Shown here piece by piece: positions 10,112 to 38,213 of a stretch of DNA of 53,327 nucleotides. This DNA is from a virus (Duplodnaviria; Caudoviricetes). Position numbers and translations under genes: made by a program. The notes under the pieces were generated by a model. The model was not told where the DNA came from. It was given only the letters and a program-made list of their open reading frames with translations, and made no database searches. Where the stretch lies: positions 1-53,327 of IMG/VR virus record IMGVR_UViG_3300025413_000034, one strand, 5' to 3'. Numbering within the stretch: position 1 is the stretch's first letter; every line of letters begins with the position of its first letter.

Positions 10112-10120
10112 TTCTGCTTC

Positions 10121-10891: not shown

Positions 10892-10895
10892 TAGA

Positions 10896-12349: not shown

Positions 12350-12351
12350 CG

Positions 12352-12726: not shown

Positions 12727-12740
12727 AGGGCTATCTTCCC

Positions 12741-13121
12741 CTAGTTTGTGGCTGGAGTCTCTTTATTTGTTAAATGAGTTTCAATAGTGATGAGTCTTTC
12801 GCCCATCTCAACAAAGGCTTCAAGCATCTTGTCTTGAGTCTCGATGATCTTTTGCTGGTTCTCGTAGAGTCGATCTACGCGATCCTTGACTGTGGTGAAG
12901 CCACCGTTGCGGCTTAACTCGCCATCCATGCGGTTCATGCGCTCCATAATTCCTGGGATAGCGTCACGGCCTGGTTCTTCTGGGGTACCTTCCCAGTCAC
13001 GCTTAAAGCGATCCATCCACTCTGCAAACTCTTTAAACTTCTTATATGCAGGACGCAAGATAACCCCCAAACTGATAAGAGCACCAGTGACAATGCCCAA
13101 AGAGGTAAAGAACGTTGTCAC
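12741..13121 (-). CDS. Membrane protein with N-terminal TM helix (lysis-module associated)
   Basis: Hydrophobic N-terminus, then DWEGTPEEPGRDAIPG and NGG..VKD..DR. Confidence 0.6.
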   Translation of the reverse strand: MTTFFTSLGIVTGALISLGVILRPAYKKFKEFAEWMDRFKRDWEGTPEEPGRDAIPGIMERMNRMDGELSRNGGFTTVKDRVDRLYENQQKIIETQDKMLEAFVEMGERLITIETHLTNKETPATN

Positions 13122-13141
13122 TGGGTCTCTCCTAAACTAAA

Positions 13142-13429
13142 TTACTTGTTGTTAGATGCAATAGTTTTTTCAGCGTCTGTTACTGCAGTTGCTACACCTT
13201 GAGCGACAACAGCCTCTGGGAGACCTGTCTTCTTAGAGATAATGTTAGCAACTGATGCTGGATTCAACTTTGCAAGTGCTGGAGCAACTAGACCTGCTGC
13301 AAGTGCCCAAAGGACTGACTTGTAATCGTGATGGCCTGGTGTCTTCAGAGTGATACCGACGATACCAATTGCAGTACCTGCGGTTGCATATACGTAGTGC
13401 TCAACAAGCACAAGGATCTTCTTATCCAT
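13142..13429 (-). CDS. Putative holin
   Basis: 95 aa with two hydrophobic segments and LAKLNP. Confidence 0.5.
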   Translation of the reverse strand: MDKKILVLVEHYVYATAGTAIGIVGITLKTPGHHDYKSVLWALAAGLVAPALAKLNPASVANIISKKTGLPEAVVAQGVATAVTDAEKTIASNNK

Positions 13430-13449
13430 GGATCTCCTAATGTGTGGGG

Positions 13450-13632
13450 TTAGTTCTTATCCTTGGGGTTACGAAGTCGAAACGTCGCAATCCACAAGAA
13501 TAAGGATATAAGAGTAGCATCGCCAACAACTGTTTTGGCGCTACCTGTAAGGACTAACCATGCTGAGAAAAGACCTACAAAAGTCCAAATCTGGTTAGCA
13601 AGGTCTGCAAATAGGGATTTAAGAAACTTCAT
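13450..13632 (-). CDS. Small two-TM membrane protein
   Basis: 60 aa, hydrophobic, directly downstream of the PA14 protein. Confidence 0.6.
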   Translation of the reverse strand: MKFLKSLFADLANQIWTFVGLFSAWLVLTGSAKTVVGDATLISLFLWIATFRLRNPKDKN

Positions 13633-13634
13633 TA

Positions 13635-16600
13635 TTACCTCTTTCTAAAGCGAGCAACTGCACCAACGGCAACAGTTATTACTAATATCTTTTTGGCTTT
13701 CTTTCTTGTAACAGGAGACATGTCGTTACCGATATTTGCCATTGCGACAAATGCATGGTTAAGTGCTTGTGCGCCAGGTACTGCTGCGATTGCTCCTGTT
13801 ACTGGTGTCTCAATAACTGGAACAGCAACGTCTGGTGCATTGAATGAAGTGCCGCCTGGTTGTCCGATAAATGTGTCCGCAGTAGTAATCGCCTCTGGAG
13901 GAATTGGAAGACCAGATCCTGGAGGTGGTGCAGGAGGAGTTAATTTTCCATCTTCTTGAACAACCTGTGGTGCTGATTGTGTGCCGAAGAATTGGATACC
14001 GCCGTTTTCAACGCCCTTCACGTCTACCTGTACGTGAGGAACAAGCACCTCTGCAGGAGCAGGCTTTGGTATGTCTGTAGGAAGTTGAGCGGCGTTATTT
14101 GGAACAATGCCGATTTCCTTAAATGCTTGAATTGCAGTAGGAGCCAAGTACTTCTCTGGAGCAACTGCAGGAACATATGTTTCTGCTGTAGTATTTGTAG
14201 TCACTACAACAACAGGAGGTGCTGGTGGAGGAGTCGGGGCAGGAGTTGGAGTTTGAGTTTGCTTGGCCGCATCAGCAGCAGCCTTGGCAGCGGCTGCATC
14301 CTGAGCAGCCTTAGCGTCTGCTGCGGCTTTATCAGCAGCCGCTTTATCTGCGGCGGCTTTAGCATCTGACGCTGCTTTATCAGCAGCGGCTTTGTCTGCT
14401 GCAGCCTTATCTGCTGCGGCTTTATCAGCAGCAGCCTTATCAGCAGCATCTTGTGCAGCCTTAGCATCGGCCGCAGCCTTAGCAGCATCTGCTGCAGCCT
14501 GTGCATCTTTAGCGGCTTGAGCAGCCGCAGCATCAGCAGCGGCCTTTGCATCAGCAGCGGCTTGAGCATCTTTTGCTGCTTGTGCTGCTGCGGCCTCTTG
14601 CGCTGCTTTTGCATCGGCTTCTGCTTTTGCAGCAGCGGCATCTGCAGCCGCTTTAGCCTCATCAGCAGCCTTTGCTTCTGCAGCAGCCTGTGCGTCTTTG
14701 GCAGCCTGTGCTGCAGCGGCAGCATCAGCGGCTGCTTTAGCATCTGCAGCGGCTTTAGCGTCGGCTGCTGCTTGTGCATCTTTCAATGCCTGTGCTGCTG
14801 CGGCTTCTTGAGCCGCCTTTGCATCCGCTGCTGCTTGAGCGGCGGATTGTGCATCAGCCGCATCTTTTGCTGCCTGTTCTGCTGCAGCGGCTTGTTGTGC
14901 TGCTAATGCCTCTGCTGCTGCTTTTGCTTCTGCGAGTTGTTTAGCAGCCAGAGCATCCGCCGCTTCTTTGTCTGCTGCTGCTTTGGCCTCTGCAGCCTGT
15001 TGCGCTGCAAGTGCATCTGCTGCGGCTTGAGCGTCAGCGGCTTGTTGTGCGGCTAATGCATCAGCGGCTGCTTTAGCAGCAGCGGCATCTGCTGCTGCTT
15101 TCTTTGCAATCTCATCTTGAATTGTTTGTGTTGATTGAGCAAGAGTCGTTGCTGCTGTGTTGGCAGCCTGTACTGCTGTATCTGCTGCAGCGTTAGCAGT
15201 GTTAGCATCTCGTGTAGCGGTGTTTTGTGCCAAATCTAATACGGTCTGTTGTACTGTAAGGTTTTGTTGTGCTTGTGTGAGGTTTTGCTGTGCAACTGTA
15301 AGGTTTTCTTTAGCAGTTGCTAGATCAGCCTGGGCTTGGTCGTAAGCGACCTGTGCAGCAGCCGTAGCAGCAACGTTATCAGAAGCAGCATGAACAGCAC
15401 TGTTGTAGGCATCCCATGCAGCATTTCGTTCGGCTAACTTTGCATCGTATGCAGCCTGAGCATCTACTACTGCTTGAGCAGTTGTTGGCACCGCTGCTTG
15501 TGCTGTTGTTAACGTCTGAGTTGCTGTGTTAAGAGTTGCTTTAGCGTCTAAAACAGATTGTTTAATGGGGTCAAGTGCAGCAACTGCTGTATTGGCAGCC
15601 TGTACTAATACTGGGTCTTTGGTAGTTGTAGTCGCAGCAAATGCGCTGGCTCCAGGAGTTGTGAAGTACCCAGTGCCATCTGCTTTAGTAATACCCCAAC
15701 CAAGAGTTACTCCAGCACCGCCACCGTTTTCGTAATACCAAATAGTAAGTTGTTGCGTTTGCCCACCAGTTACTGAATAGGTTGGACTATATGGACTCCA
15801 CGTTGGTCCTTGATCTCTCCAGTTGCTTATTGCAAGAGTTCCATCAACGTAAAGTTTTGAGCCGTCGTCTGAGTACACAGCGTACTTGACAGCAGTGGCG
15901 TCTGATGGAACGGTAATTGTTCCATCAAAACGAATGATGACATGGTCTGCTAAACCAGAGTTTAGAACAATACCACTGCCCCAGTTAAAAGCAATGTTAG
16001 GGACTGTAGTAGTAAGAATTGGTGTGGGATTAGCAATAGAAGGAGCAGCACCATTTGTAGCACGATAAACAGTTGCGGTTACTCCATTGGTCGTTGTTGT
16101 AACAGCAGAAGCATTAGCATCCGCCTGTGCTTGTGCAGCGGCATTTGCAGCATCAGTAAGCGCCTGTTCTTGTGTAGCAACTTGAGTTGTTGCTGAATCT
16201 ACGGTTGCTTGAGCAACGGGTACTGCGGAAACTGCTGCGTCTGCTGCTGCTTGGGCTGGAGCAATTTGGTCATGAAGAGGGCCTAATTCAGCATTGGTAT
16301 TGTAAAAGTGAACGCATGCGGAACCTTCTGTACATGCGGCAGCAGCATCAAGGGCTGGTTGTGCATCCTGCGTTGTAATCAAAATTGTGTTAGTAGATGC
16401 AACCGTTGCTGTTGCGCTATCTACCGTAGATTGAGCAATCGTTGTATCTTTAATGGCGTTAGCCACTGTAGCGGATGCTGCGTCTACACCAGCCTGAGCA
16501 ACAGGGACCACCGCTGCTGATGCTTGGGCAGTTGTAAGAGCGGTTGTTGCCGCAGCAATCGCTGTAGTTGCTGTATTAATTGCGGTTGTAGCATCTGCAA

Positions 16601-17309
16601 CAGCCTGTTGAGCCACAGGAAGTTCTGTCACTTTGTTCTGTACATCAGGGATTGCCTGGAGAGTGGTAGTAGAGTTAGTTACCGCAGTCTGCACTGTAGC
16701 CGTTGCTGTATCGATCTTAGAGGAGACAGAGTCCAATGATATGGAAGTCAAAGAAGATGAGGGCGTTGGAGCAGGAGATTGCAAATTATCAACGTGATCG
16801 GATACAACTGTTGAAGGTGTTGAAGACGATGGATCAGGCGTTGGAGCGGGAGCAGGAGTTGACGAAACGGTTGACGAAGAGTTTGTTGAAGAGGAAGAAG
16901 TAGATGAAGAAGATAATGAGTCTGATGTTGGTGTTGGTGTTGGCTGTGATTGCGTCGTTTGGTTTGCTGCGAAGTCTGTGGAAGTAGATGGAGTCGTGGA
17001 TGTGGTTGGTGCTGGTGCTGGCGTTTGTTCTGGTGTTGGCGTTACCTGTGGCGCTTGTGACTGCGCTACTGGTGCGCTATTTGTTGTCGTGGAAGCCGCT
17101 ACAACTGTGGAAGTATCAACAACCGTGGCAACAACAATCGGCAGAGGCGCAACAACGCTCGTTGAATCGGTTGAAGAAGTCTGAGTAGTATCTGCATGTG
17201 CGGAGGTAGCAAAAGATAAGCAGAAGAGCGCTGCTCCTCCACCTAAACTTGCTGTGATGATACGTTTGCGTGAGTCAGATTGTGCTGCGAATGTACGCAG
17301 TGGTTTCAA
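13635..17309 (-). CDS. Large secreted/membrane-anchored PA14-domain protein with Ala/Lys coiled-coil stalk
   Basis: Signal peptide ending AHA; S/T/P linker; PA14 motifs (NIAFNWGSG, SDDGSKLYVDG, YYENGGGA); AAADKAAAD repeats; hydrophobic and basic C-terminus. Confidence 0.8.
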   Translation of the reverse strand: MKPLRTFAAQSDSRKRIITASLGGGAALFCLSFATSAHADTTQTSSTDSTSVVAPLPIVVATVVDTSTVVAASTTTNSAPVAQSQAPQVTPTPEQTPAPAPTTSTTPSTSTDFAANQTTQSQPTPTPTSDSLSSSSTSSSSTNSSSTVSSTPAPAPTPDPSSSTPSTVVSDHVDNLQSPAPTPSSSLTSISLDSVSSKIDTATATVQTAVTNSTTTLQAIPDVQNKVTELPVAQQAVADATTAINTATTAIAAATTALTTAQASAAVVPVAQAGVDAASATVANAIKDTTIAQSTVDSATATVASTNTILITTQDAQPALDAAAACTEGSACVHFYNTNAELGPLHDQIAPAQAAADAAVSAVPVAQATVDSATTQVATQEQALTDAANAAAQAQADANASAVTTTTNGVTATVYRATNGAAPSIANPTPILTTTVPNIAFNWGSGIVLNSGLADHVIIRFDGTITVPSDATAVKYAVYSDDGSKLYVDGTLAISNWRDQGPTWSPYSPTYSVTGGQTQQLTIWYYENGGGAGVTLGWGITKADGTGYFTTPGASAFAATTTTKDPVLVQAANTAVAALDPIKQSVLDAKATLNTATQTLTTAQAAVPTTAQAVVDAQAAYDAKLAERNAAWDAYNSAVHAASDNVAATAAAQVAYDQAQADLATAKENLTVAQQNLTQAQQNLTVQQTVLDLAQNTATRDANTANAAADTAVQAANTAATTLAQSTQTIQDEIAKKAAADAAAAKAAADALAAQQAADAQAAADALAAQQAAEAKAAADKEAADALAAKQLAEAKAAAEALAAQQAAAAEQAAKDAADAQSAAQAAADAKAAQEAAAAQALKDAQAAADAKAAADAKAAADAAAAAQAAKDAQAAAEAKAADEAKAAADAAAAKAEADAKAAQEAAAAQAAKDAQAAADAKAAADAAAAQAAKDAQAAADAAKAAADAKAAQDAADKAAADKAAADKAAADKAAADKAASDAKAAADKAAADKAAADAKAAQDAAAAKAAADAAKQTQTPTPAPTPPPAPPVVVVTTNTTAETYVPAVAPEKYLAPTAIQAFKEIGIVPNNAAQLPTDIPKPAPAEVLVPHVQVDVKGVENGGIQFFGTQSAPQVVQEDGKLTPPAPPPGSGLPIPPEAITTADTFIGQPGGTSFNAPDVAVPVIETPVTGAIAAVPGAQALNHAFVAMANIGNDMSPVTRKKAKKILVITVAVGAVARFRKR

Positions 17310-17550: not shown

Positions 17551-17752
17551 TTTCTTCCTTTAAATACTTAATGGGATCGTGTCCTTTAAACTGCTTCTTT
17601 GATAATGGACGTGGACCACCACTTGGGGGAAGTTGCATCAAAGCCCCAATACCTTCAGCGGAGTATTGATGTGTAGCAATCTTATGAGCAGCCTGTTCTT
17701 GATCAGTCCTAATTTGAATGTTTGGTTGTTTGCGTGGTTTGTACTTTGACAT
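17543..17752 (-). CDS. Hypothetical basic protein with internal LSKKQF motif
   Basis: 69 aa; TAATG coupling. Confidence 0.55.
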   Translation of the reverse strand: MSKYKPRKQPNIQIRTDQEQAAHKIATHQYSAEGIGALMQLPPSGGPRPLSKKQFKGHDPIKYLKEENE

Positions 17753-18057
17753 TACGCAGGAGACCCGCCTGCAGCACCTGCTGCACTTGCTGCTGTGCCA
17801 CCTTCACCCATGCCGTTAGCGGTACCAAGACCCATAGAGTCTTCGTGCGCTTCTTGTGCTGGTGTTTCACTTGCTTCATCTGAGGTAGAGGTTACAAGAT
17901 TGCCAGCAGACATAGCACTTGTATAGGCAGGATACATAGTCCATGCATTACCGATTCCTGCATATGCTCCGAGAAGACCTTGACGCATAGCGCGATGGCG
18001 CTTCATTGCCTCAATATCGTGAGCCTTTTCAAACTGCTTGCGACTAAGATTGCTCAT
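17752..18057 (-). CDS. Hypothetical protein with NLSRKQF leader
   Basis: 101 aa; AAGGA RBS. Confidence 0.6.
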   Translation of the reverse strand: MSNLSRKQFEKAHDIEAMKRHRAMRQGLLGAYAGIGNAWTMYPAYTSAMSAGNLVTSTSDEASETPAQEAHEDSMGLGTANGMGEGGTAASAAGAAGGSPA

Positions 18058-19617: not shown

Positions 19618-19935
19618 TCAGTCAGCCTGAATGCCGATACTCTCTAAATACTTGTCTTTCTCTGTTAGGAGATAGGTCTTGATCTGTTCTTGTCGTTCTG
19701 CAATCTGTTCTTCTGTCTTGGTAATCATCTCTTCGTCTAATTCTTCCTTGTGCTCGTTAAACTGCTCTACTGCGTAGTCCAGTACTGATTGAAATCCTGC
19801 TGCTTGAATCTGGGCCGCAGTCCAGCGGTCCTCTGCTTCCTTATTGCGCTTTGCAATAAGTGCATCTAGTTGAAGAGCCTGACGCTCTTCGATCTTCTTC
19901 TGTCGGTTTGACTTATAAAGAGTCTCTTCGCTCAC
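19618..19935 (-). CDS. Hypothetical coiled-coil protein
   Basis: 105 aa charged ORF coupled to the protease gene. Confidence 0.55.
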   Translation of the reverse strand: MSEETLYKSNRQKKIEERQALQLDALIAKRNKEAEDRWTAAQIQAAGFQSVLDYAVEQFNEHKEELDEEMITKTEEQIAERQEQIKTYLLTEKDKYLESIGIQAD

Positions 19936-20480
19936 TTATATTGCTCCATAGTCGTTAGTGGTCCTGATGAGTAGACGCTAAACCTGCAAGCGATCTCAAC
20001 TGCTTCTTCTGGATTGGCTCCAGCCGCCAAAGCGCCCAATGCGTAGTTCTCTCCAGAACCCACAGCATACAGGCCATCGCCCGTTCTACAAACTGAGAGA
20101 TCATCAGCAACGTCGAATAACTCTCCGCAGACTGCGATCAAGAAGTGAAAGCGCTGCTCGTTAGCCTTGCCATCGCCCTTGCCCTCATTGAAGTCGTAGC
20201 CATTCTCTGTCAAACACTTGCGCATGGATGGCATCGCCTTGGTTATAACAAAATGATAAACGTCTTTTCTATCGGTGGCAGTAACCTTAGGTGGTACCCA
20301 GAAGTGCTGCACGATGTCGCATGGACTGACTTCACCACTGCCTGCAACTAAGAATGCGCCTCTTTGGGCGATCTTCTTCATATCAGGATGATTAAAGCGG
20401 CGACCTTGATCGTCAGTCACTTGATTGTCAGCAACAATGACGCATCTGTCTTCGTACTGGACTCCCACGATGGTTGTCAT
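19932..20480 (-). CDS. Proteasome-beta/HslV-like Ntn-hydrolase protease
   Basis: N-terminal catalytic Thr (MTTIVG), ADNQVT, KI and AVGSG..YALGAL. Confidence 0.85.
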   Translation of the reverse strand: MTTIVGVQYEDRCVIVADNQVTDDQGRRFNHPDMKKIAQRGAFLVAGSGEVSPCDIVQHFWVPPKVTATDRKDVYHFVITKAMPSMRKCLTENGYDFNEGKGDGKANEQRFHFLIAVCGELFDVADDLSVCRTGDGLYAVGSGENYALGALAAGANPEEAVEIACRFSVYSSGPLTTMEQYK

Positions 20481-20555: not shown

Positions 20556-21101
20556 TTAGTCCAAATCTGAGTAGAAATGGCTTTTTTTGAGATTACAGAT
20601 TCCATGAGCGGGTCTTACGTTTTCTAGCGTATCTGGTCCACCTTTTGAGATAGGAACTAAATGGTCTATGTGAAAGCCTTTTTGCCACCCCTGTAATCCC
20701 ACCTGTCTTGGGGCTTCCAGGTCAATTTCCTCAAAGCACACATGGCAAATAACGCCGTAAGTTTCGAGTACTTGTTGCTCTAGGTATTTTTCATAGCCAT
20801 TTTCATGTTTTCTGGCTCTTCTTCTCCGTTTATGCTCTCTACTAACTTCTGGATGGTTTTCTCTAAACTTTTTCTGGGACTCTGCATTTTTTTCAGGGTT
20901 TTCTTTTGCCCATCTCATAGCCCGTTTTGAAGCAAGAGATTTTTGTTCTTGTACATACTCTGGGTTTAACTTTTTTAGTGTAGTTTTTCGCCAAATTTTC
21001 ATGTATTCATTTTTTGCAAACTTACAGGCATCACAAGGTACTTCTTTTGCATCGTAGTGTTTGTTATACCCTGTACGGGTCCCACAATACTCGTTCGTCA
21101 T
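20556..21101 (-). CDS. HNH endonuclease with N-terminal Zn motif
   Basis: CHVC, HIDHLVPISKGG.D...N....H..CN; N-terminal CGTRTGYNKH...CDAC. Confidence 0.9.
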   Translation of the reverse strand: MTNEYCGTRTGYNKHYDAKEVPCDACKFAKNEYMKIWRKTTLKKLNPEYVQEQKSLASKRAMRWAKENPEKNAESQKKFRENHPEVSREHKRRRRARKHENGYEKYLEQQVLETYGVICHVCFEEIDLEAPRQVGLQGWQKGFHIDHLVPISKGGPDTLENVRPAHGICNLKKSHFYSDLD

Positions 21102-22339: not shown

Positions 22340-22840
22340 ATGTCAAAAGTAGTAAAATTAAGCAAAGAAGAAGTAAGAGCCTGCGCAGATATTGCCCTTA
22401 ATCGCTGGATGATGAAGTGGGGATCTGTAGACCGCCCTAATTATGCAGGAGACAATAAGGCTAAGTTAGAGCCAGAGATTGCCGCCAACGTCAGAACGAT
22501 CGTTGCTGAGTATGCCGTAGCCAAACTCTACAAGCAGTCATTTACATTTCCCTTTTACACCAATGAAGAGCACCCATTTAGAAAAGACATTGCTGATGTG
22601 GGCACAAACATTGAAGTCAAATCCATCCGCACTCGTGATGAGATTCCAGTCTTTCCTAAAGATATACGACCTGGATGGCTGCTCGTGGGCGCTCGCGTGC
22701 TAGACCGCGACTACTACTCAGAGGTAGAGGTATTTGGTTGGATTAAGATGGAGGATGTGCAACGTGATGAGTGGCTCTATGCGCCAGAAGGTTCGTGGAG
22801 AATCCCACTAGATCAGTTTAGCGACGAGCCTATCGCTTAG
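22340..22840 (+). CDS. Putative PD-(D/E)XK-fold protein
   Basis: AEYAVAK...ADVG.NIEVKS motif; leaderless promoter upstream. Confidence 0.55.
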   Translation: MSKVVKLSKEEVRACADIALNRWMMKWGSVDRPNYAGDNKAKLEPEIAANVRTIVAEYAVAKLYKQSFTFPFYTNEEHPFRKDIADVGTNIEVKSIRTRDEIPVFPKDIRPGWLLVGARVLDRDYYSEVEVFGWIKMEDVQRDEWLYAPEGSWRIPLDQFSDEPIA

Positions 22841-23042
22841 GCTCCCAGTGCTTATGCTCCTGGCCTTCTTGGAATGCGCCATCAGCATGCATCTGGTTAT
22901 GCATCTCTTCAATCTCAGAAGGACCAACGCCACCCCAACCTTGGGCTGGAGCACCCTTGTGATAACTGTGGATGTGCCACTTCGTTAGATGACGGCTATT
23001 AGGCTTTGGAACCCACTTAGTCTTCTTTGGCTCTTCGATCAT
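22830..23042 (-). CDS. His-rich hypothetical protein
   Basis: 70 aa ORF. Confidence 0.5.
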   Translation of the reverse strand: MIEEPKKTKWVPKPNSRHLTKWHIHSYHKGAPAQGWGGVGPSEIEEMHNQMHADGAFQEGQEHKHWEPKR

Positions 23043-23205: not shown

Positions 23206-23550
23206 TCAGATATCAGTACGACCATAATCATCATCCAACCTGACGATATCGCTCTCAACCAAGACATTACCTAACTGCACCTCAATAAAGGTGAGAGGGT
23301 TAGTACCTGTATTGGCAATACGGTGAGCGTCGCCAATTTCAATCACGAAGGCATCACCCACACGGCAGTCGGCTTGCTCCCCATTAAATGTCACCGTCCC
23401 ATGACCTTCCACAATCACCCAGTACTCGGCTCTATGCTCATGCGTCTGGTAGGAGAGTCTCTGGCCAGGTTCTACCGTGATGGTCTTTATCTGGTGGTTA
23501 AGTTTTGTATGAAGTACGTCGTAGGTTCCCCATGGGCGGATTTCAGTCAT
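23206..23550 (-). CDS. Mannose-6-phosphate isomerase type II cupin domain protein
   Basis: RPWGTY, PGQRLSYQTHEHRAEYW, HRIAN, IEVQLG and DIVRLDDDYGR. Confidence 0.9.
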   Translation of the reverse strand: MTEIRPWGTYDVLHTKLNHQIKTITVEPGQRLSYQTHEHRAEYWVIVEGHGTVTFNGEQADCRVGDAFVIEIGDAHRIANTGTNPLTFIEVQLGNVLVESDIVRLDDDYGRTDI

Positions 23551-23942: not shown

Positions 23943-24130
23943 TATGGCTTCACCGTCTTCTCTAGATACTCGACGACGTCACAATCCACATCACACAAAT
24001 CGAGAGAGATAATCTCTGCCAGATACTCGGAGGCGATTGACTTCCTGATATTTCCTACTAATTCTTCGCCAAGGTCTAGATCTACGTACTTGACCCATGG
24101 CTTTCTCAATGTATATCCGAAGATCCTCAT
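23942..24130 (-). CDS. Hypothetical protein
   Basis: 62 aa, coupled to the HNH gene. Confidence 0.55.
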   Translation of the reverse strand: MRIFGYTLRKPWVKYVDLDLGEELVGNIRKSIASEYLAEIISLDLCDVDCDVVEYLEKTVKP

Positions 24131-24576
24131 TCTCTTCCCGCCTCTACTTCCTTGCGCAGGATGCGCCGCTTGTGCGTCCTGGTTCTATGATGGTTAGCGC
24201 AGACTATATCGCATTTCTCTAATTCAACCATCACCTCTTGGAGCGTGTTGGTGCGATACATCTTGGAGATCTCATTGGATTTGGCGCCCTTCACGTGGTC
24301 GGCATCCAGTACGTAGTACGGATGCATGCCAGGATAGCCCTCGTCGCGGCAGTCTTGACAGCCTCGCTCTTCTTTATATGTATTGATGAAGTTCTTGAGG
24401 TTGAGGCGGTAGGTGCGACCGCGCTTGATGGTCTTCTCTTTCTGGCCCTTACCGAACCAGTATGATAATGTGCCTTTAGATAGCCCAGTTATCTGTTGAA
24501 TGGTGCGAAATGATTTGCCCTCAGCCCGTAATGCGAACATGAGTTCTTTCTGTTCATCAGTAGTCTTATATCCCAT
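24127..24576 (-). CDS. HTH plus HNH endonuclease
   Basis: GKSFRTIQQITGLSKGTLSYW helix-turn-helix; CQDC, LDADH and KCDIVCANHHRTRT. Confidence 0.8.
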   Translation of the reverse strand: MGYKTTDEQKELMFALRAEGKSFRTIQQITGLSKGTLSYWFGKGQKEKTIKRGRTYRLNLKNFINTYKEERGCQDCRDEGYPGMHPYYVLDADHVKGAKSNEISKMYRTNTLQEVMVELEKCDIVCANHHRTRTHKRRILRKEVEAGRE

Positions 24577-24611: not shown

Positions 24612-24614
24612 TTG

Positions 24615-24685
24615 CTCCCTGGCCTGGATTCGAACCAAGATACTCGCCTCCAAAGGGCGATGTCCTACCGTTAGACGACCTGGGA
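24615..24685 (-). tRNA. tRNA-Gln(UUG)
   Basis: Cloverleaf: anticodon arm TCGCC-CTTTGGA-GGCGA, T-loop TTCGAAT, D-arm GTC...GAC; CCA not encoded. Confidence 0.9.
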
Positions 24686-24808: not shown

Positions 24809-25018
24809 TTACTCTTTGCGCCAAACTCTGATGACCTGCTCTGGATCATACTCAGTAATACCTGGGGCTTTTGATCCCCGTAACTTATGGGCGGCTACCA
24901 TCTTGTCACCGATCATCTTTGCCGCATGGACACGAAGTTTACCCGCAGCATCTAAACGATCTCCTGGCTGTATCTCCTTGGCAGGGATATTAAATTGCTT
25001 ATGGTTGAGGTTGCTCAT
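24809..25018 (-). CDS. Small protein with NLNHKQF leader
   Basis: 69 aa; last gene of the coupled cassette. Confidence 0.65.
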   Translation of the reverse strand: MSNLNHKQFNIPAKEIQPGDRLDAAGKLRVHAAKMIGDKMVAAHKLRGSKAPGITEYDPEQVIRVWRKE

Positions 25019-25497
25019 CAGTACTCGACCTTGCCAGAGACGCGGATATTAGGATGCTTCTGGCCTACCTTGCCCATGATGTGGCCTACTGCTGGATCCA
25101 TCATCTTGCCAAAATTTACAGCAGAAGGATTATGGGTATTGATCAAGGTCTCAAGGGCGGTTTGAGCCACGCCACTGCCTTGCAGATGGTTTCTTGTCTT
25201 CATGTAGTGGATGTGTATGGCATCGCCGTGCTTCTCGTAGTCAACGAATCCAGCGGCATTCTCTCCTGCGCCTGGTTTGACTTCTACCTTTGGCTTCTTC
25301 AATGGCTTACCAGTTTTGCCGCGACTCACTACTCGCTGCGTCTCATCGAGGTAACTCTCTGGCTTCTCTACGCCAGCAGTGGCCTCAGGGTGGCGCACCA
25401 CCAGTCTCTGCACAGGCCCTGATGATGCTGGGTAGGTGAGAGGACTGGTTGTATGGTCAATATCAAATTGCTCAGGGTTGAGGTTACGTGGACTCAT
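25018..25497 (-). CDS. GNAT-like acetyltransferase with NLNPEQF leader
   Basis: AGFVDY...IHIHYM...HLQGSGVAQ acetyl-CoA-binding motif. Confidence 0.65.
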   Translation of the reverse strand: MSPRNLNPEQFDIDHTTSPLTYPASSGPVQRLVVRHPEATAGVEKPESYLDETQRVVSRGKTGKPLKKPKVEVKPGAGENAAGFVDYEKHGDAIHIHYMKTRNHLQGSGVAQTALETLINTHNPSAVNFGKMMDPAVGHIMGKVGQKHPNIRVSGKVEY

Positions 25498-25787
25498 TTG
25501 TTCTCTCCTTTATACCCGTTGATCCAAGCGTCGCCCTCTTCTGTCCTTACATCCGAATGAACGGGTTTTGTAATTCCTTTATCTTCCGCAATTTCGTGAG
25601 CCTTGTCCCATAGAGCGGTCGCTACACCCTTACGACGATGTTCAGGGTTGACCATAAGACCCCGTACATCACCCTCTTCTTTCGTCCACTCTATACCGCC
25701 GACCTTTGTGTCACCTGATGTAGCGTAAATACGGTGCTTTGAAGGTGTTTCCTCATAGTTGAACTGAAGATTGCTTAGGGCGCTCAT
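25494..25787 (-). CDS. GNAT acetyltransferase with LSNLQF leader
   Basis: LMVNPEHRRKGVATALW; RTEEGDAW. Confidence 0.8.
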   Translation of the reverse strand: MSALSNLQFNYEETPSKHRIYATSGDTKVGGIEWTKEEGDVRGLMVNPEHRRKGVATALWDKAHEIAEDKGITKPVHSDVRTEEGDAWINGYKGENK

Positions 25788-26170
25788 TCTTTAGTCTCTT
25801 TAGGTGGAGTGCGTTTTACTACGGATTTTTTGACTCTTCCACGTGGTTCAATGTCCTTGGGTTCTGCAAAGGTACGTGGACGCGACACTGGAAGTTTGCT
25901 TTTAATCTTAAAACCTTTTTTACTGATATAGACGTTAGGCATTGAAAACTTCTCAGTGTGCTCGTCTGGCTCAACCTCGTACACGTTCTTACCGTAGAGT
26001 TGTGCTTCCGATAAATCCGTTGTCGCAAAAGCCACGTGTTTTCCTACTATATCTTTATTATTGTCAAAGCCTTGAAGCCTAGCCTCTACCATGCCTGGTA
26101 CCTTGATGTGAGTATTGCTTCCATGGTAGAGTTTAAACTGGTTACCCGACAAGTTATCTTCGGCGCTCAT
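25784..26170 (-). CDS. ADP-ribosyltransferase-like protein with NLSGNQF leader
   Basis: LYHGS...AFATTD...A..YG..VYEVEP resembles the Arr/ART catalytic motifs. Confidence 0.6.
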   Translation of the reverse strand: MSAEDNLSGNQFKLYHGSNTHIKVPGMVEARLQGFDNNKDIVGKHVAFATTDLSEAQLYGKNVYEVEPDEHTEKFSMPNVYISKKGFKIKSKLPVSRPRTFAEPKDIEPRGRVKKSVVKRTPPKETKE

Positions 26171-26673
26171 CCTTGTAACTCCCTAAAGTGACCAGGATGT
26201 AATTCCTTGGGTTGGTAGGTATCTCCTGGAAAGTTTGCCCAACTTCTTGTCAAAGTTAATGGAGATCCAATTCCCTTTTTCTTTCGTGTTGCAATACCGC
26301 CACCGTAGCCTGTAGACCATACAGTTACAGGGACATGGGTATGTCCTGCTTGTTCAGCCGCAAGAAGGCGATGATGGCCTTCTCCCAAATACCCCCACTG
26401 ATGTTCAGTATTATGTTCAAGAACCAATGGCTCTCTAATAACGCCACCCTTGCGTAATTCATCGGCGATGTTGTTGATGCGTTCTGCACTATCAGGCTGT
26501 GACTCAGCCCCCTGACGATTAAACTCTGTGTATCTCTTCATGACAGATACAGGGATCATTTTGGTAATAGAACGTGATGTATCGCCCTCCATATGACCCA
26601 AACCACCAGATCGAATGATGTTGGTGCCTTCAGGAACAGGAACACCAAATTGATTAGGGTTGAGGGCGCTCAT
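26167..26673 (-). CDS. ParB/Srx-like nuclease-fold protein with LNPNQF leader
   Basis: IREPLVL...LGEGHHRLLAA...VPV. Confidence 0.75.
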   Translation of the reverse strand: MSALNPNQFGVPVPEGTNIIRSGGLGHMEGDTSRSITKMIPVSVMKRYTEFNRQGAESQPDSAERINNIADELRKGGVIREPLVLEHNTEHQWGYLGEGHHRLLAAEQAGHTHVPVTVWSTGYGGGIATRKKKGIGSPLTLTRSWANFPGDTYQPKELHPGHFRELQG

Positions 26674-26912
26674 GGATTCTGCTTCTTATGCGCTTCCCAG
26701 GCTTCGCTAATTCCTTTTTTGTCTGCGTAATGCCATTGATCTACTGGCTTATTGCCTAGACCTGGATTTACATCTGTTGGGTGCTTAATGCTATAGGTAT
26801 CGCAGTGTTCACAGCCAAGATTTACTCCACCATTGGTTATAAACTTCACCATCTTGTGGCGGCGCTTGCCTGACTTGGTAAATTGCTTGCCTAGGTTCTC
26901 TTCAGCGCTCAT
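26670..26912 (-). CDS. Small protein with NLGKQF leader and CxxC
   Basis: 80 aa; ATGA coupling. Confidence 0.6.
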   Translation of the reverse strand: MSAEENLGKQFTKSGKRRHKMVKFITNGGVNLGCEHCDTYSIKHPTDVNPGLGNKPVDQWHYADKKGISEAWEAHKKQNP

Positions 26913-27073
26913 TTCACGTCCTTACAGGCCTTGCAGCCACATTGTAGGTTGACACATGGGCAATCCTCGTCAGATGGCAGTAAACCGCTGCCTCTGCACC
27001 ACTCACAGGCTGTCATATGGTGATTATGTCAGAGAGAGGTTTGTTACACACTCTATGTGTTAGGCTACTATCT

Positions 27074-28093
27074 ATGAACCCATCCGTCATTCGTGAGATC
27101 TGTGGAACTGAATCAGGCTACAGAAAACATAGAAGAGAAGATGAGAAGCGCTGTGAGGAGTGCACCGTTGCTCATAACGAGCACCGCCGCAAGACATACA
27201 CCCCTGATAAGCAGAGGGCTCACAAAGAGAAGTATGAAGAGAAGGTCATCAAGCCAGCCCGCATCGCTCGCAAGAAGGCGCAGGAAGAGGCTAGGGCTAA
27301 AAAGAAAGCGGAGGCTCTGGCTCGCAAAGAGGAGAGACGACAGCGCGGCATCTTGTACAAACAAGAGAAGGAACGCCGTCGTATTGCTCATCAGGAGAAG
27401 TTACTGGCTATTGCTGAGCGTAAACGCATAGAGCGTGAGGGTATAGAGCAGCGTAAGGCTGAGAAGGCGTTACTCAGAGAGAAAAAACTCCTAGAGAAAA
27501 AACTCCTAGAGGCCGAGAATAAGCGTATAGCCAGAGAAGAGAGAAAGCAACGCTCGCTAGAACGCCAGGCTCGCCTTGCCGCTGAAAAAGAGGCTAAAGC
27601 CCTAGAGAAGGCTAAAAAGCAGGAGATGCTCAATAACCAACACGGAGTTACTGTGGGTGACTACGACCGTTGCCGTAAAAATAACAATGGCAATGCCTGC
27701 GGCCTCTGCAAGGGTGTCGTGAATGCCTATGTGTCTCAAAAATCCAAGGAACCTGCATATAAAGACAGGGAAAAAGAGTGGAGAAAGAACAACCCACATC
27801 GTAGACCCCACAGTAACCGTGAGAGAGCCATTAAACGGGGCGTGCCTACCCAGTACTACACCCGTCAACAGATCATTGACCGTGATGGTACGGACTGCTA
27901 CCTCTGCCATCTACCCCTTGACTTTGAGGCAAACCACGTCCAAGGCCAGCCTGGGTGGGAGTTATACCCTCATGTAGAGCATGTGGTGCCCCTTGCCAAG
28001 GGCGGTCATGACATCCTTGATAACGTCAAGTTAGCCCATGCCAAATGCAACATCGACAAGGGCGTGAAACTCATAGAAAAGGCTACTGTCTGA
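27074..28093 (+). CDS. HNH endonuclease with long charged coiled coil and two Zn motifs
   Basis: C-terminal CYLC...HVEHVVPLAKGG.D...N....H..CN; N-terminal CGTESGYRKH; start inferred from a leaderless TGtTAGGCT promoter. Confidence 0.85.
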   Translation: MNPSVIREICGTESGYRKHRREDEKRCEECTVAHNEHRRKTYTPDKQRAHKEKYEEKVIKPARIARKKAQEEARAKKKAEALARKEERRQRGILYKQEKERRRIAHQEKLLAIAERKRIEREGIEQRKAEKALLREKKLLEKKLLEAENKRIAREERKQRSLERQARLAAEKEAKALEKAKKQEMLNNQHGVTVGDYDRCRKNNNGNACGLCKGVVNAYVSQKSKEPAYKDREKEWRKNNPHRRPHSNRERAIKRGVPTQYYTRQQIIDRDGTDCYLCHLPLDFEANHVQGQPGWELYPHVEHVVPLAKGGHDILDNVKLAHAKCNIDKGVKLIEKATV

Positions 28094-32403: not shown

Positions 32404-32679
32404 ATGAAAGAAAATCTGATGTACCAATTCGAACTCGATGAACTCGGCATCATGGGCGCAATGCTCGCTAAGTCTCTCGACTTCGCCAATGATCAAGATG
32501 CACCAACAGTCATCATCGCCACTCTCGAATCTGCACTCGATAAATTGCAAGTGATTATCGATGCACGATGCGAAGAACATAACGCCTTCGTGGATATCAC
32601 CGAGTCACTCGATGATCTCTTCGATGTATCGCGTGCAATCGTTAAAGACCCAGAAGTATCCACACCAGATTACAACTAA
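32404..32679 (+). CDS. Acidic hypothetical protein
   Basis: GGGGAG RBS before ATG 32404. Confidence 0.55.
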   Translation: MKENLMYQFELDELGIMGAMLAKSLDFANDQDAPTVIIATLESALDKLQVIIDARCEEHNAFVDITESLDDLFDVSRAIVKDPEVSTPDYN

Positions 32680-32689
32680 GGAGCAATCA

Positions 32690-33562
32690 ATGAATCCACT
32701 CAATCAACTCGTGCCAACTCTTGAATCTCAAGAGCACTACATCGACCGCAACTGGTGCGGTGTCTCTGGTCTGCAGATCGCAGACTTCGCTCGCAAGCAT
32801 AAGATCAATATGCTCAACGCTGGTCATGCTGGTACTGGTAAGACTTCATTCGCTCAGTACTACGCGAGCCAGCGTGGTCTGCCGTATGTAGATCTCCCTT
32901 CTAACTCGGCACTCAGTGCGAATGAGTTGCAAGGCAACTGGGTCTCTGGTGACGGCAAACTCGACTGGGTCGACTCGATCTATGTCGAAGTCTGGCGCAA
33001 TGGTGGCGTGCTCAATCTCGGTGAGATCGATCAACTCGCAAAGAATGCTCAATTCTTCTTCCACCCAGCCATGGATCATCGTCGTACTCTCACGCTCACT
33101 GCCAAAGATTACGAAGTGGTGACTGCTCACCCAGATCTCATCGTGATCGCTGACTGGAATCCTCTTTATCGCGGTCGACAACCTCTCTCTGAGTCGTGGG
33201 CTGATCGCTTCCAACTCAAACTGCGTTACGAGTACGACCGCGACATCGAGAGCAAGATCATCAAGTCAGAATCGCTTCTTGATCTCGCGTTCGGTATGCG
33301 ATCTCAGTCTCGTGGTGTTGATCTCGGTCATGCGAGCAAGTCGACAGTGTTCGAGACACCGATCACTCCACGCATTCTCAAGACCTTCGAACTCGTAGCG
33401 AAGGAATTGAGTTTCGATCTCGCCTGTGAGATCTTCACCAATAACTTCACTGATGAAGAACGCCCAGCAGTCAAGATGCTTCTTGAAGGCGCGTCGTTCA
33501 ATATCAAAGATGAACTCGGCATCGATAACGATGCAGTAACAACTCAGCACGAATCAGTCTAA
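32690..33562 (+). CDS. MoxR/CbbQ-like AAA+ ATPase
   Basis: Walker A GHAGTGKT, variant Walker B LNLGEID, NPLYRG and ADRF; AAGGAG RBS before 32690. Confidence 0.85.
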   Translation: MNPLNQLVPTLESQEHYIDRNWCGVSGLQIADFARKHKINMLNAGHAGTGKTSFAQYYASQRGLPYVDLPSNSALSANELQGNWVSGDGKLDWVDSIYVEVWRNGGVLNLGEIDQLAKNAQFFFHPAMDHRRTLTLTAKDYEVVTAHPDLIVIADWNPLYRGRQPLSESWADRFQLKLRYEYDRDIESKIIKSESLLDLAFGMRSQSRGVDLGHASKSTVFETPITPRILKTFELVAKELSFDLACEIFTNNFTDEERPAVKMLLEGASFNIKDELGIDNDAVTTQHESV

Positions 33563-33572
33563 GGAGCACTAC

Positions 33573-35516
33573 ATGGACAAGATCAATGTAACTGATCTCG
33601 GAGAGATCTTCGATGCACTCAAAGAACTCACCGAAGATCAGAAGGCAGAAGAGGCTAAACGCCAGCGCATCGAACGCTTCACTGGCTTCTTCTCTCGCGT
33701 GAACTCTGCCTTCACATTCCGACCAGTGACAGTGACAGTGGAGTCATCACCGATCAAAGCACCAGCGTGGTCTGGTGCTAGCGATGTCCACTTCAATGCC
33801 AATGAGATCGGTGAACTCGACACTGCGGAGTCGATCGCCAGCATCAAGGGTCTTGATCTGCATGAGGTCAGCCACATTCTCTACACCAGCAGAGAAGGTA
33901 GCGATCTTGTCTCGTCAGTGATCGATAAGAAGATGTGGACTGCATTCAATGCGTTAGAAGATCAGCGCATCGAGTCATTCTTCACTGCAAAGTATCCTTC
34001 GACTGTCGCGTGGTTCTCAGCGATGATCTTGACTCACTTCAAGAGCAACCCAGAAGTGTTCGAGAACTCGTACCCACTACTCTGCGGTCGCAGGTATCTG
34101 CCAGTCGAGATTCGCAGAGAGTCTCGTGCGCTCTATCCTCATCAGGACAAGGTCGATGAGTTTAAGGCGATCATCAATGAGTACCGCACTCTCGTATTCC
34201 CCACCGATACAGATCGCGGTCTTGAGTTGATCGAGCAGTATTACAACCTCTTGCCGAAGAGTGAAGGTGGCAATGGTGATGAGACTGGCGAGACTAAGTA
34301 CAAGGCAGTCAATGGCGATGCAGAAGGCGGTCGACCAGTGAAGGTCATTGACCCATGCGGTCATGGCTCACGACCTAATGAGGGTATTGAGTCAACTCCT
34401 ACCTCTCGCCCAGTACCACCCCGCCAGCAGGAGAAGGAGCGCGATCGTGCTGGTAGCAAGCCAGAAGATCTCGATGACGATCTCCCAGAGATCAAGGCAG
34501 AGGATATCGACTGGTCTGACTTCGATGATCAGGGCGATGATCAGGGCGATAAGTCTGATGAGACAAGTAACTCTGACGGCGGAGAGTCTGGTGATGCAGA
34601 AGTTACTCCACCAGAGGGCGAGTCAACGGCTGGTGCTGATGCCAGCGAGATGATCTCGACAATGCTCGAAGAGATTCTTAGCGAGTCAGGTATCGCTCAG
34701 GAGATCAACGACATTCTTCGAGTCATCAGTGGTCAGCCCACTCTCACATCGAATAACTCACAAGAGCCAGAGCGTGCTCGCTATAGCGAGATCTCACCAG
34801 ACTCAGTGACAGTCGATGCATCACGATCATTCGGTCGTGAACTCGAACGCCTGCGTGCCTCATTCGACCCAGCATGGGATAGATACGAGAACTCTGGTCG
34901 CTTGAGTGTCGGTCGATATATGCGTGGCGATGACTTCGACACGATCTTCGACCAATGGAATGAAGGTCGTGAAGATGCGACTGACATCGAATGCGTGATC
35001 GCTATTGATCACTCTGGCTCGATGTCTGGTAGCAAGATCGCCAATGCAAATCGTGCGATGTATGCAATCAAGCGAGCACTCGATCGCATCGATGCAAGCA
35101 CGACAGTGATCGCATTCTCTGACGAGACTCATCTCCTCTATCGCGCAAGCGAGAAGGCAAACTCTCAGATTCGAGATTCATTCAGTGGTGGTGGCACTAC
35201 CCCAGATCAAGCGATCAAGTACGCAACGAAGTTGCTTGCAGAGAGTGATCGCAAGATCAAGATCTTCTTCGTGATCACTGACGGCGAGTGGTACGGAGAT
35301 CAGACTACGAATGAAGATGCAATAAAGCGCATGGGTCAGTCTGGCGTGCTGACTGCGTTCGCTTATATCCCAGAGAAGAATGAAGAGGTCGTACTCACTG
35401 CAGAGAAGGCTCACAACTGTGAGATCGGTGCAGTAGTTGCTAACCCATTCGATCTCGTCACCATGGCAAGAGCGATCGTGAAGTACGCGATCTCTCGCAG
35501 ACTCACTAACGCGTAA
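33573..35516 (+). CDS. vWA (CobT-like) protein with N-terminal HExxH metallopeptidase-like domain
   Basis: LHEVSH and NALEDQRIE; acidic linker; MIDAS DHSGSM, GGT and ITDG. Confidence 0.85.
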   Translation: MDKINVTDLGEIFDALKELTEDQKAEEAKRQRIERFTGFFSRVNSAFTFRPVTVTVESSPIKAPAWSGASDVHFNANEIGELDTAESIASIKGLDLHEVSHILYTSREGSDLVSSVIDKKMWTAFNALEDQRIESFFTAKYPSTVAWFSAMILTHFKSNPEVFENSYPLLCGRRYLPVEIRRESRALYPHQDKVDEFKAIINEYRTLVFPTDTDRGLELIEQYYNLLPKSEGGNGDETGETKYKAVNGDAEGGRPVKVIDPCGHGSRPNEGIESTPTSRPVPPRQQEKERDRAGSKPEDLDDDLPEIKAEDIDWSDFDDQGDDQGDKSDETSNSDGGESGDAEVTPPEGESTAGADASEMISTMLEEILSESGIAQEINDILRVISGQPTLTSNNSQEPERARYSEISPDSVTVDASRSFGRELERLRASFDPAWDRYENSGRLSVGRYMRGDDFDTIFDQWNEGREDATDIECVIAIDHSGSMSGSKIANANRAMYAIKRALDRIDASTTVIAFSDETHLLYRASEKANSQIRDSFSGGGTTPDQAIKYATKLLAESDRKIKIFFVITDGEWYGDQTTNEDAIKRMGQSGVLTAFAYIPEKNEEVVLTAEKAHNCEIGAVVANPFDLVTMARAIVKYAISRRLTNA

Positions 35517-37485: not shown

Positions 37486-37743
37486 GTGCAATCGCCATAT
37501 GACGGCACGCAACTCTGTGCTCAAGTAGACCCAGAGGTATTCTTCCCCAATAACAACTTCGAGATTCGAAGAGACATTCAGACTGCAATCAAGATCTGCA
37601 GACAGTGTCCGCTACTCAATCAGTGCGCTGAGTATGCCCAGAGCCAGCCCTATCTCTACGGAATATGGGGAGGCAAGATGTACTACGGAGATACATATGT
37701 CTCCTCAATCTATGTATCCAGAAATAAACGAAAGGTGGCGTGA
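37486..37743 (+). CDS. whiB: WhiB-family transcription factor
   Basis: CAQVDPEVFFP...CRQCP....C....LYGIWGG. Confidence 0.92.
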   Translation: MQSPYDGTQLCAQVDPEVFFPNNNFEIRRDIQTAIKICRQCPLLNQCAEYAQSQPYLYGIWGGKMYYGDTYVSSIYVSRNKRKVA

Positions 37744-38213
37744 TGAAGTCAAAGACAACTAAGAAGTGTTTTGCCTGTAACCGATACAAGGGCAGACATC
37801 TCTTCAACCGCAACAGTGCCAGACCAGACAAACTGCAGACCCAGTGCAGATCGTGCCAGAAGAAGTCGAGTTACGATCACTACACCGACAACCACAAGGT
37901 CATGATCAAGCAGACAAAGATCGCCAAATCAAAGAGGCGTGCAGTACTGCAGGCGTACATCGCTGAGTACAAGTCAGAGAACCCATGCGTGGACTGTGGC
38001 AACGCAGACATCAGAGGGCTCGACTTCGATCATGTCAGAGGGCGCAAGTCATTCGACATCTCTCTCGGCATTCAAGAGGGTATCTCACTGATCAAACTGC
38101 AGAAGGAGATCGGCAAGTGTGTGGTGCGCTGTGCCTATTGCCACAAGATCAGAACCAGCAAGAAGAATAAAGACTACTTACATAAGTATGTAAAGACAGG
38201 AAAGGTGAAGTAA
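37740..38213 (+). CDS. HNH endonuclease
   Basis: CVDCG, LDFDHVRG and KCVVRCAYCHKIRT; N-terminal CxxC pairs. Confidence 0.8.
   Translation: MMKSKTTKKCFACNRYKGRHLFNRNSARPDKLQTQCRSCQKKSSYDHYTDNHKVMIKQTKIAKSKRRAVLQAYIAEYKSENPCVDCGNADIRGLDFDHVRGRKSFDISLGIQEGISLIKLQKEIGKCVVRCAYCHKIRTSKKNKDYLHKYVKTGKVK

Follow-up and report, generated by a model that had tools for sequence, protein, structure and literature searches.

Background

In bacteriophage T4, the internal proteins IPI-III and the ADP-ribosyltransferase (ART) Alt carry a short N-terminal capsid-targeting sequence, a tag which ends in L/I-x-E. Encapsulins use another kind of address, in which cargo-loading peptides, short, disordered and usually C-terminal with a flexible linker, dock diverse enzymes inside a shell of the HK97 fold. 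Here we describe a short N-terminal leader, NL-x-QF, on unrelated small proteins of a virus of Caudoviricetes (Duplodnaviria), IMG/VR virus record IMGVR_UViG_3300025413_000034. The whole record, 53,327 bases with an estimated completeness of 53%, was analysed and is called the window. For six consecutive genes an initial annotation had proposed that this leader loads host-modifying or anti-defence enzymes into the head of an actinophage. This leader proves to be a genuine recognition tag which moves between proteins, and it varies the capsid-targeting theme of T4.

According to the passages of Iyer et al. (2017, PMC5512222) cited here, T4 Alt is packaged and injected, and polyvalent proteins would be early effectors which travel in the head and enter the cell with the DNA, a proposal for which Alt and the head-incorporated P1 DdrB are the precedents. 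In the same passages polyvalent proteins combine ARTs, GNAT acetyltransferases (often beside an ART), DdrB-like ParB/Srx domains, HEXXH peptidases and peptidoglycan-targeting domains, and solo GNATs are placed among the late structural genes of mycobacteriophages. Viral proteasome homologues (PPH, AAH, CPH) are catalogued without function in the cited sections of Fuchs et al. (2021, PMC8665760).

Like the T4 sequence, the leader of the window is a short N-terminal peptide on unrelated proteins including an ART (seven window genes, 43 clusters of bodies in the census below), and it stands partly in a variable cassette, where bodies differ between relatives and the leader is kept. Unlike the T4 case, the sequence is …NL-x-QF, and the phage is probably a myovirus of actinobacteria, with a capsid of the HK97 type and a scaffold which is a protein of its own. 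PHROGs showed no prohead protease of the T4 type; the candidate here is a proteasome-family N-terminal nucleophile (Ntn) hydrolase encoded outside the head module. Because neither that protease nor the T4 cleavage motif was found, we do not regard the locus as a T4-type capsid-targeting system.

With polyvalent proteins, as the passages of PMC5512222 present them, the locus shares a repertoire of ART, GNAT, ParB/Srx, HEXXH peptidase and peptidoglycan-binding domains, the zincin being a lead only here, and the ParB-like domain of the window is fused elsewhere to GNATs and NUDIX in giant proteins. The difference is that 2-15 domains are joined in one polypeptide there, whereas here they are separate small proteins with their own tags. 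Neither a Phage_Mu_F domain nor a portal-domain fusion, as in MuF-type polymorphic toxins, was found with Pfam in the six cassette proteins or in 51 carriers of relatives. The peptidase of the window is a group-I proteasome homologue, nearest to BPH and HslV among solved structures; the cited sections of PMC8665760 give no substrate tag and no Actinobacteria-specific AAH phage, whereas here an actinophage peptidase gene lies beside tagged genes or beside the portal gene. Unlike encapsulin cargo peptides, the tag is N-terminal, has no linker and belongs to a DNA-packaging phage.

Tagged genes of the window

All six N-termini of the initial annotation are present on the minus strand between 24809 and 26912, and a seventh tagged gene, missed by it, lies outside this cassette. 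The motif of the seven genes is M-S-x(0-5)-[N/S]-L-x(0-3)-Q-F. Carrier 1 (26670-26912, 80 residues) begins MSAEENLGKQF and has a body with one CxxC (CEHC) for which no Pfam or PHROG family was matched; its homologues in relatives L001 and L002 retain the leader. Carrier 2 (26167-26673, 168 residues, MSALNPNQF) is ParB/Srx-like. Carrier 3 (25784-26170, 128 residues) is an Arr-like ART, and its leader, MSAEDNLSGNQF, abuts the L-Y-H-G-S strand and is conserved across 11 database homologues. Carrier 4 (25494-25787, 97 residues, MSALSNLQF) is a GNAT acetyltransferase of Pfam PF00583. Carrier 5 (25018-25497, 159 residues, MSPRNLNPEQF) is weakly GNAT-like, with the leader retained in homologues of L001, L002 and L108. 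Carrier 6 (24809-25018, 69 residues, MSNLNHKQF) has a homologue in L002 which also retains it. The seventh carrier (17752-18057, minus strand, 101 residues, MSNLSRKQF) belongs to a conserved family of 18 members encoded downstream of the peptidase gene; in relative G004 a homologue of 41% identity retains the leader as MNENLSQQF.

Adjacent cassette genes overlap by 4 nucleotides (ATGA) at four junctions and by 1 nucleotide at one. With these overlaps, the translational coupling of the initial annotation is plausible. Directly downstream of the cassette is a tRNA-Gln gene with anticodon UUG (24614-24685, minus strand); the invariant Gln of the tag is encoded by CAA in four and by CAG in three of the seven leaders.

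Motif frequency and level of selection

N-termini were collected with a simple greedy open reading frame (ORF) call, which is crude (it lost the gene at 24809-25018, for example), and the counts are approximate. In seven sources, 44 of the 6304 positions between residues 5 and 12 had QF, where the background is 0.136% (binomial P = 9e-18). In 85 sources with 2294 unique proteins it was observed 174 times when 29.6 were expected, and QF was the most enriched dipeptide, followed by KQ, NL and LS. The census pattern ^M.{0,8}[LIM].{0,3}QF matched 159 of the 2294 unique N-termini (6.9%), compared with 49 of 4622 internal mock starts (1.06%) and 18.9 +/- 3.9 matches, with a maximum of 31, in 200 shuffles of the N-termini. 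The motif is far commoner than chance at the N-termini of relatives. Five of the 159 matches were dropped as signal peptides or wrong-strand ORFs. At E 1e-4, BLASTP separates the 154 retained carriers into 43 body clusters with no similarity to one another.

The conserved residues of the leaders have varying codons: Leu is encoded by CTA, CTC, TTG or CTT, Gln by CAA or CAG, and Asn by AAC or AAT. The distance from NL to QF changes in frame, and the longest identical DNA string between any two leaders of the window is 11 nucleotides. Judged from this synonymous variation, the in-frame spacing and the short shared strings, selection acts on the leader peptide and not on the DNA or RNA.

These observations bear on the explanation that the leader has no function of its own and is a by-product either of cassette shuffling, as a shared 5' end for recombination, or of translation initiation in overlapping genes. 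All six cassette genes overlap the preceding stop codon (ATGA), which constrains their first codons, and the locus is reshuffled between relatives with HNH endonuclease genes on its flanks, as such a by-product would have it. A recombination site was nevertheless rejected, given the limit of 11 identical bases among window leaders, and two adjacent, near-identical leaders of L001 diverge at synonymous sites past their first 14 nucleotides. Moreover L, Q and F at codons 4-12 are invariant at 38% body identity while their spacing varies in frame. We therefore consider a functionless leader very improbable.

Two other occurrences of QF were set aside. In a 131-residue protein and in the large terminase of some relatives it is coincidental, the window having RF and KF at these places. 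The conserved internal L-R-F-E-Q-F of the capsid protein is unrelated, and is also present in carrier-free phages and in Streptomyces phage BRock.

The leader as a portable module

Among 21 homologues of the ParB-like carrier, L4, Q8 and F9 are invariant down to 38% identity, conserved like the GEGHHR core, and one of these carriers (L148) has an insert of 14 residues between tag and body. Few segments of the ART-like family are as well conserved as its tag. In the AlphaFold2 (AF2) model of carrier 2, which has a predicted local distance difference test score (pLDDT) of 83.2 and a predicted template modelling score of 0.82, leader residues 1-9 have a mean pLDDT of 39. In the model of carrier 3, pLDDT stays under 50 at residues 1-6 and 8-10, and L14 opens the first strand. 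Since L, Q and F are invariant while the tag is modelled with pLDDT below 50, the tag behaves as a free linear motif, predicted to be disordered and outside the fold.

Bodies occur with and without the tag. The carrier 6 body is untagged in G003, where a homologue of 60% identity starts MSRASEF. The GNAT of carrier 4 has the leader in the window and in G003, and has none in G001 and L002. A His-rich protein of 70 residues (22830-23042, minus strand) has no leader in the window or in L002, whereas its homologue in L001 (3083-3328) is tagged, MSAEDNLSPDQF, so the tag has been gained or lost on a single body. In all, three body families occur both tagged and untagged. With the 43 clusters, these cases support a genuine tag, acting at the level of the peptide and portable between unrelated effector-type bodies.

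Comparison of L001, L002, L104 and L108 with the window showed a reshuffling cassette in which bodies change and the leader is kept, comparable to the internal-protein loci of T-even phages and in agreement with the interchangeable bodies proposed at first. The ParB-like body is absent from all five long relatives. The tag is not confined to the cassette, and conserved genes around the HslV-like peptidase gene are tagged too.

Searched against 1.84 billion representatives, the ParB-like profile gave 777 relatives with E <=1e-3. The best 150 of these were 61 stand-alone proteins (<260 residues) and 89 large multi-domain proteins. By regular expression 29 of the 61 stand-alone proteins are tagged: 18 with type A (…L-x-x-Q-F/W/L), eight with type B (MGRNNADF, MSRSDEF, MGMGRSEEF) and three with type C (MSLLW…); MQPGRQF and MGKQF are near-misses outside the expression. 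For the large proteins 83 of 89 have no match, and the other six were judged probably spurious. By this contrast of 29/61 with 6/89, short N-terminal tags accompany the domain where it stands alone. The choice of tag appears to differ between lineages.

Tags of the MSLLW… kind and of the MGRNNADF/MGMGRSEEF/MSRSDEF kind were seen on ParB-like and GNAT homologues (P0014, P0017 and P0027; P0023, P0032, P0043, P0059, P0062 and P0066), and further homologues with alternative tags lie at G001 33762-34531 and L001 3832-4290. This suggests that both kinds are lineage-specific alternatives. A conserved tagged mini-protein of 55-58 residues, MISNQQFG…KQAMPE…YDGP, was also seen (L114 4091-4261 with eight homologues; G004 63212-63382). 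It is encoded just downstream of the peptidase gene in many relatives and is absent from the window.

Bodies of the carriers and effector repertoire

The cassette carriers of the window have 69-168 residues and at most one recognisable domain each. Of the first body assignments, the CxxC of carrier 1 is visible in the sequence. Carrier 2 matches ParB-like PHROG families at E 9e-8 to 1e-5, with Pfam ParB_N at E 0.004, below the cut-off, and Foldseek of its model returned Noc, ParB, sulfiredoxin and SbnI as top folds (probability about 1.0, E 1e-3 to 1e-2). The GNAT assignment of carrier 4 is secure (PF00583, E 3.2e-9, above the cut-off), whereas that of carrier 5 is weak (Acetyltransf_CG, E 0.006, below the cut-off).

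For carrier 3, the ART-like call is upheld by fold and by sister families. Its AF2 model is moderate (pLDDT 63.5, core 70-82), with the Arr rifampin ART as top Foldseek match (probability 1.0, E 1e-3 to 1e-2, TM 0.42-0.49) and KptA/Tpt1, PARPs and cholera toxin A1 next in rank. In three sister carrier families Pfam Arr-ms gives matches slightly short of the cut-off (E 5e-5 to 1e-3), and the profile begins right after the tag. The ART family alignment searched against viral contigs found only two loci.

Relatives carry further tagged GNATs and a tagged protein of about 500 residues with a HEIGH motif, read from the sequence, for which Atlas gave leads only (0.83-0.85) to LPD23, LPD1, lethal-factor-type and SprT/ArdC-type zincins. 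A tagged LysM protein of G004 is encoded inside the structural module, four genes upstream of the sheath gene. Pfam searches of 51 carriers of relatives mostly gave no match (21 of 24 and 20 of 27).

The ParB-like domain of the window is also found inside proteins of 1000-5700 residues. Of 17 larger homologues scanned (446-2810 residues), six have GNAT domains, one of them also NUDIX, and 11 have no Pfam match. In mycobacteriophage Blubba gp73 the ParB-like domain is joined to a stretch which we read as a GNAT motif. By analogy with the cited passages of PMC5512222, the tagged bodies look like single-domain equivalents of delivered effectors, every one of which would require a handle of its own, and this match of repertoire with polyvalent proteins is the strongest indirect argument for the initial idea of delivery. 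The tag would let probable delivered effectors be listed from sequence, namely ARTs, acetyltransferases, ParB-type enzymes and about 30 families of unassigned function.

The repertoire also speaks to the explanation that the tag is an unconventional signal for export or membrane targeting. One carrier has a LysM peptidoglycan-binding domain, and tagged genes lie near genes for a holin-like protein, an endolysin and a large secreted protein, which would suit such a signal. But the short tag is polar throughout most of its length and lacks any hydrophobic segment, and most bodies are ARTs, GNATs and ParB-like proteins, which use cytoplasmic cofactors or substrates. Export is the least probable of the explanations considered, and we give it very little weight.

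Proposed virion loading and the HslV-like peptidase

The single most likely reading, with a probability of about 0.4, is that the leader is an address tag for loading into the virion. The leader would be a portable short linear motif, unfolded at the N-terminus of unrelated small enzymes, and one common receptor, most likely a part of the virion-assembly pathway, would read it on all bodies. The tagged ARTs, GNATs, ParB/Srx-type proteins and others would be late products which are taken into the head and enter the next infected cell along with the DNA, as single-domain counterparts of the giant injected polyvalent proteins, of T4 Alt and of the internal proteins. We favour this reading on the match with the polyvalent repertoire, the precedent of T4 Alt, the strictly N-terminal position of the tag and a possible head role of an HslV/BPH-like peptidase. 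This peptidase is the best candidate partner for trimming or controlling the tag, in the role which the head protease of T4 has for the capsid-targeting sequence. Packaging, injection and cleavage are thus all inferred. If the tag is such an address label, it might also be used as a handle by which foreign proteins are loaded into an actinophage.

The HslV/BPH-like Ntn peptidase is encoded at 19932-20480 on the minus strand (phrog_1040, E 7e-29). Its nearest solved structures are BPH and HslV (profile matches, E 4e-6 to 1.5e-5), and a Thr stands directly after the initiator Met, as in Ntn hydrolases. The N-terminus M-T-T-I with this Thr nucleophile is invariant in 35 aligned homologues. The only AAA+ protein noticed in the window is MoxR-like, so that no HslU-type unfoldase was seen, although no search was aimed at unfoldases. 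A resemblance of the tag to the C-terminal tail of HslU was set aside, as it depends on residues not conserved in the tag.

The closest cultured-phage homologue of the peptidase (38.6% identity) is in LanE43-AprE7 and LanE43-AprF5 (OX376640.1 and OX376641.1), the Planktophila phages E7 and F5 of PMC10202952. The gene order in E7 is terminase, portal, HslV-family peptidase (7500-8036 in OX376640.1, our L277), proteins of 84 and 147 residues, a giant protein of 1764 residues without recognisable domain (8727-14021; 1711 residues in F5), proteins of 442 and 530 residues, an acidic protein of 158 residues, and a capsid protein of the same PHROG as that of the window. The slot directly after the portal gene is the usual place of head maturation protease genes. 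The position of the E7/F5 peptidase therefore makes it a candidate non-canonical head protease, and suggests that the peptidase family works in head assembly. These two phages provide a cultured system of host and phage with the peptidase beside the portal gene, and the link of the tag with an HslV/BPH-like peptidase makes the role of virus-encoded proteasome homologues directly testable.

The distribution of the tag was compared in nine long genomes, of which G000, G001, G003, G004 and G008 are carrier-positive and G002, G005, G006 and G007 have no carriers or one implausible match. The HslV family is the only one found in at least four of the five positive and none of the four negative genomes. 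A large secreted PA14 protein looked associated at first (4/5 against 0/4), but was rejected as a correlate since loci free of both carriers and HslV also have one; the MoxR/VWA pair was rejected on its homologues in carrier-free G002 and G007. A further set of 46 loci, each at least 12 kb long, was anchored on the holin-like gene beside the peptidase gene; carriers were found in 11 of its 15 HslV-positive and 5 of its 31 HslV-negative loci, the five looking weak (Fisher p = 2.5e-4, inflated by relatedness). The four HslV-positive loci without carriers have distant copies (25-46% identity). The distance of carriers from the peptidase gene is 2-7 kb on its upstream side and 0-3 kb on its downstream side. 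In L216 and L220 this slot is taken by a second peptidase lineage of only 29% identity, again together with carriers.

Several results weigh against virion loading with the peptidase as partner. On the tree of the anchor protein five independent contrasts are supported; about 2.5 of them have carriers changing in the same direction, none shows the opposite change and 2.5 show no difference, and after this correction the median p is 0.25. The association of tag and peptidase therefore has the right direction but lacks statistical security, and physical linkage would suffice to explain it. Carriers of a more degenerate form are present in G001, which has no HslV homologue (best tblastn E >5) and no peptidase among 22 neighbouring proteins. 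The peptidase gene of the window adjoins lysis genes, about 15 kb away from the head module. PHROGs show no prohead protease between portal and capsid genes, where a gene of 250 residues encodes a coiled-coil scaffold. E7 and F5 have no NL-x-QF leaders, and no domain was found in their giant proteins, including with our own ParB and ART profiles. QF is followed at once by the body, and the lack of a linker would sterically hamper cleavage within the closed chamber of an HslV-type peptidase. A promoter scan gave no information on timing (10 sites against 14.8 expected). Co-folding of two peptidase copies with residues 1-40 of the ParB-like carrier, scored at 0.00 against a mark of 0.32 in a run made without controls, counts neither for nor against this partnership.

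This evidence also bears on the explanation that the tag is read by the phage's own HslV/BPH-like peptidase in the infected cell without any packaging, either as a degron for the timed removal of host-takeover enzymes or as an activating pro-peptide. HslV is the sole gene tracking the tag, tagged genes surround it, and the catalytic Thr N-terminus is invariant. HslV and the proteasome have a chymotrypsin-like S1 pocket suited to hydrophobic residues, and L and F are the only hydrophobics of the polar tag. In ART bodies the tag abuts the first strand of the NAD site, where its removal could alter activity. Yet G001 is tagged without a peptidase, the four loci with distant HslV copies are untagged, the association loses significance after phylogenetic correction, no unfoldase partner was noticed (none being searched for), and the missing linker would make access to a closed chamber difficult. 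We regard this explanation as unlikely, though it is the main rival of virion loading.

No head protein tracks the use of the tag, which also counts against virion loading. The four carrier-negative genomes share the head module, with capsid proteins 80-86% identical, and capsid identity to the window does not separate the groups (86% for negative G002 and for positive G001). Columns which separate the groups number none in the capsid protein, two in the portal and three in the scaffold, none unusual among 126 splits, and no shared core protein has more of them than arbitrary splits.

This lack of co-variation with any phage head protein would be expected if the tag bound a host hub protein, such as a chaperone, the adaptor of a protease, or a factor in replication or transcription, and brought many phage enzymes to one host site. 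A conserved, disordered, short motif with two hydrophobic anchors is typical of host-binding linear motifs, and tag variants stand on homologues from other sources of apparently higher GC. Against a host hub, close relatives, presumably of similar hosts, are wholly untagged, a strictly N-terminal position is not needed for a docking motif, and the tag could be matched to no known host-binding motif, although no search for one was made. We therefore think a host hub quite unlikely.

In a further reading, tag and peptidase make up a previously undescribed cargo-handling module: a proteasome homologue would be the maturation protease of head or cargo, reading N-terminal NL-x-QF pro-peptides of an exchangeable set of about 40 effector families. 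We consider this reading unlikely. If true, it would give viral proteasome homologues their first function and their first substrate code. Literature searches on HslV as a prohead protease and on capsid targeting in actinobacteriophages apparently gave nothing on either, and the motif, its clade, its spread of about 7% and its association with a proteasome homologue were not found there.

Phage group and host

The genes of the window form a long minus-strand block which runs leftward from about 27016. It begins with a CxxC ORF of 35 residues, the six tagged genes, the tRNA-Gln and an HNH endonuclease gene, and continues with small ORFs, a cupin, an endolysin, a WhiB-HNH fusion, the HslV-family peptidase, a polynucleotide kinase and a holin-like membrane protein. 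The seventh tagged gene, a secreted protein of 1224 residues and membrane proteins follow, and the block ends with the large terminase, portal, coiled-coil scaffold, major capsid protein and collagen-like fibres. The genes for portal, scaffold and capsid protein are at 5526-7268, 4646-5398 and 3486-4610.

The call of an actinophage holds, as WhiB-like domains are present, the nearest cultured capsid proteins are those of Streptomyces phages (60-62% identity), and the nearest cultured-phage homologues of the peptidase are in Planktophila phages. Megablast of 10 kb of the window against GenBank phages found no match. The capsid protein of BRock is 60% identical, but none of the annotated starts within the first 100 kb of this 112.5-kb genome has the leader.

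A search of the viral collection with the capsid protein gave more than 600 matches, of which the best 80 are 78-100% identical; these phages are very abundant in lakes. Several related records have 89-98 kb with terminal repeats, and G004 is a myovirus with sheath, tube and baseplate genes. The relatives appear to be uncultured freshwater actinobacterial myoviruses of about 95 kb. From the WhiB-like domains, the GC content of 48% and the peptidase homologues in Planktophila phages, we infer a low-GC freshwater actinobacterium as host, and the phages probably infect dominant freshwater Actinobacteriota.

Other genes of the window

The protein of 1224 residues (13635-17309, minus strand) has an N-terminal signal-like segment and a C-terminal membrane anchor. 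It contains Ser/Thr/Pro-rich and Ala/Lys/Asp-rich repeats and a PA14-like region (the G001 homologue matches Pfam PA14). Such a protein of cell-surface type is unusual in a phage, and homologues of 677-999 residues are present in most related loci. Between the cassette and the lysis genes is a small cupin (23206-23550, minus strand; Pfam E 2e-32) related to the C-terminal domain of mannose-6-phosphate isomerase.

On the plus strand, a MoxR/CobS-like AAA+ ATPase (32561-33562) and a VWA/CobT-like protein (33573-35516) form a pair found in most relatives, carrier-free ones included. An integrase-family protein of 425 residues (39211-40488, plus strand; phrog_1, E 4e-54) was found in an otherwise large myovirus of lytic type in appearance; a prophage search with the ParB-like alignment against bacterial genomes gave no match. 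A queuine tRNA-ribosyltransferase-like gene (43727-45274, minus strand; phrog_887), common to BRock gp36, possibly has a role in 7-deazaguanine DNA modification.

HNH endonucleases with WhiB-like N-terminal regions are encoded at 27017-28093 (plus strand) and 20556-21101 (minus strand), and further HNH genes at 24127-24576, 37740-38213 and 50233-50628. The window thus has five HNH genes per 53 kb, several of which flank variable regions.

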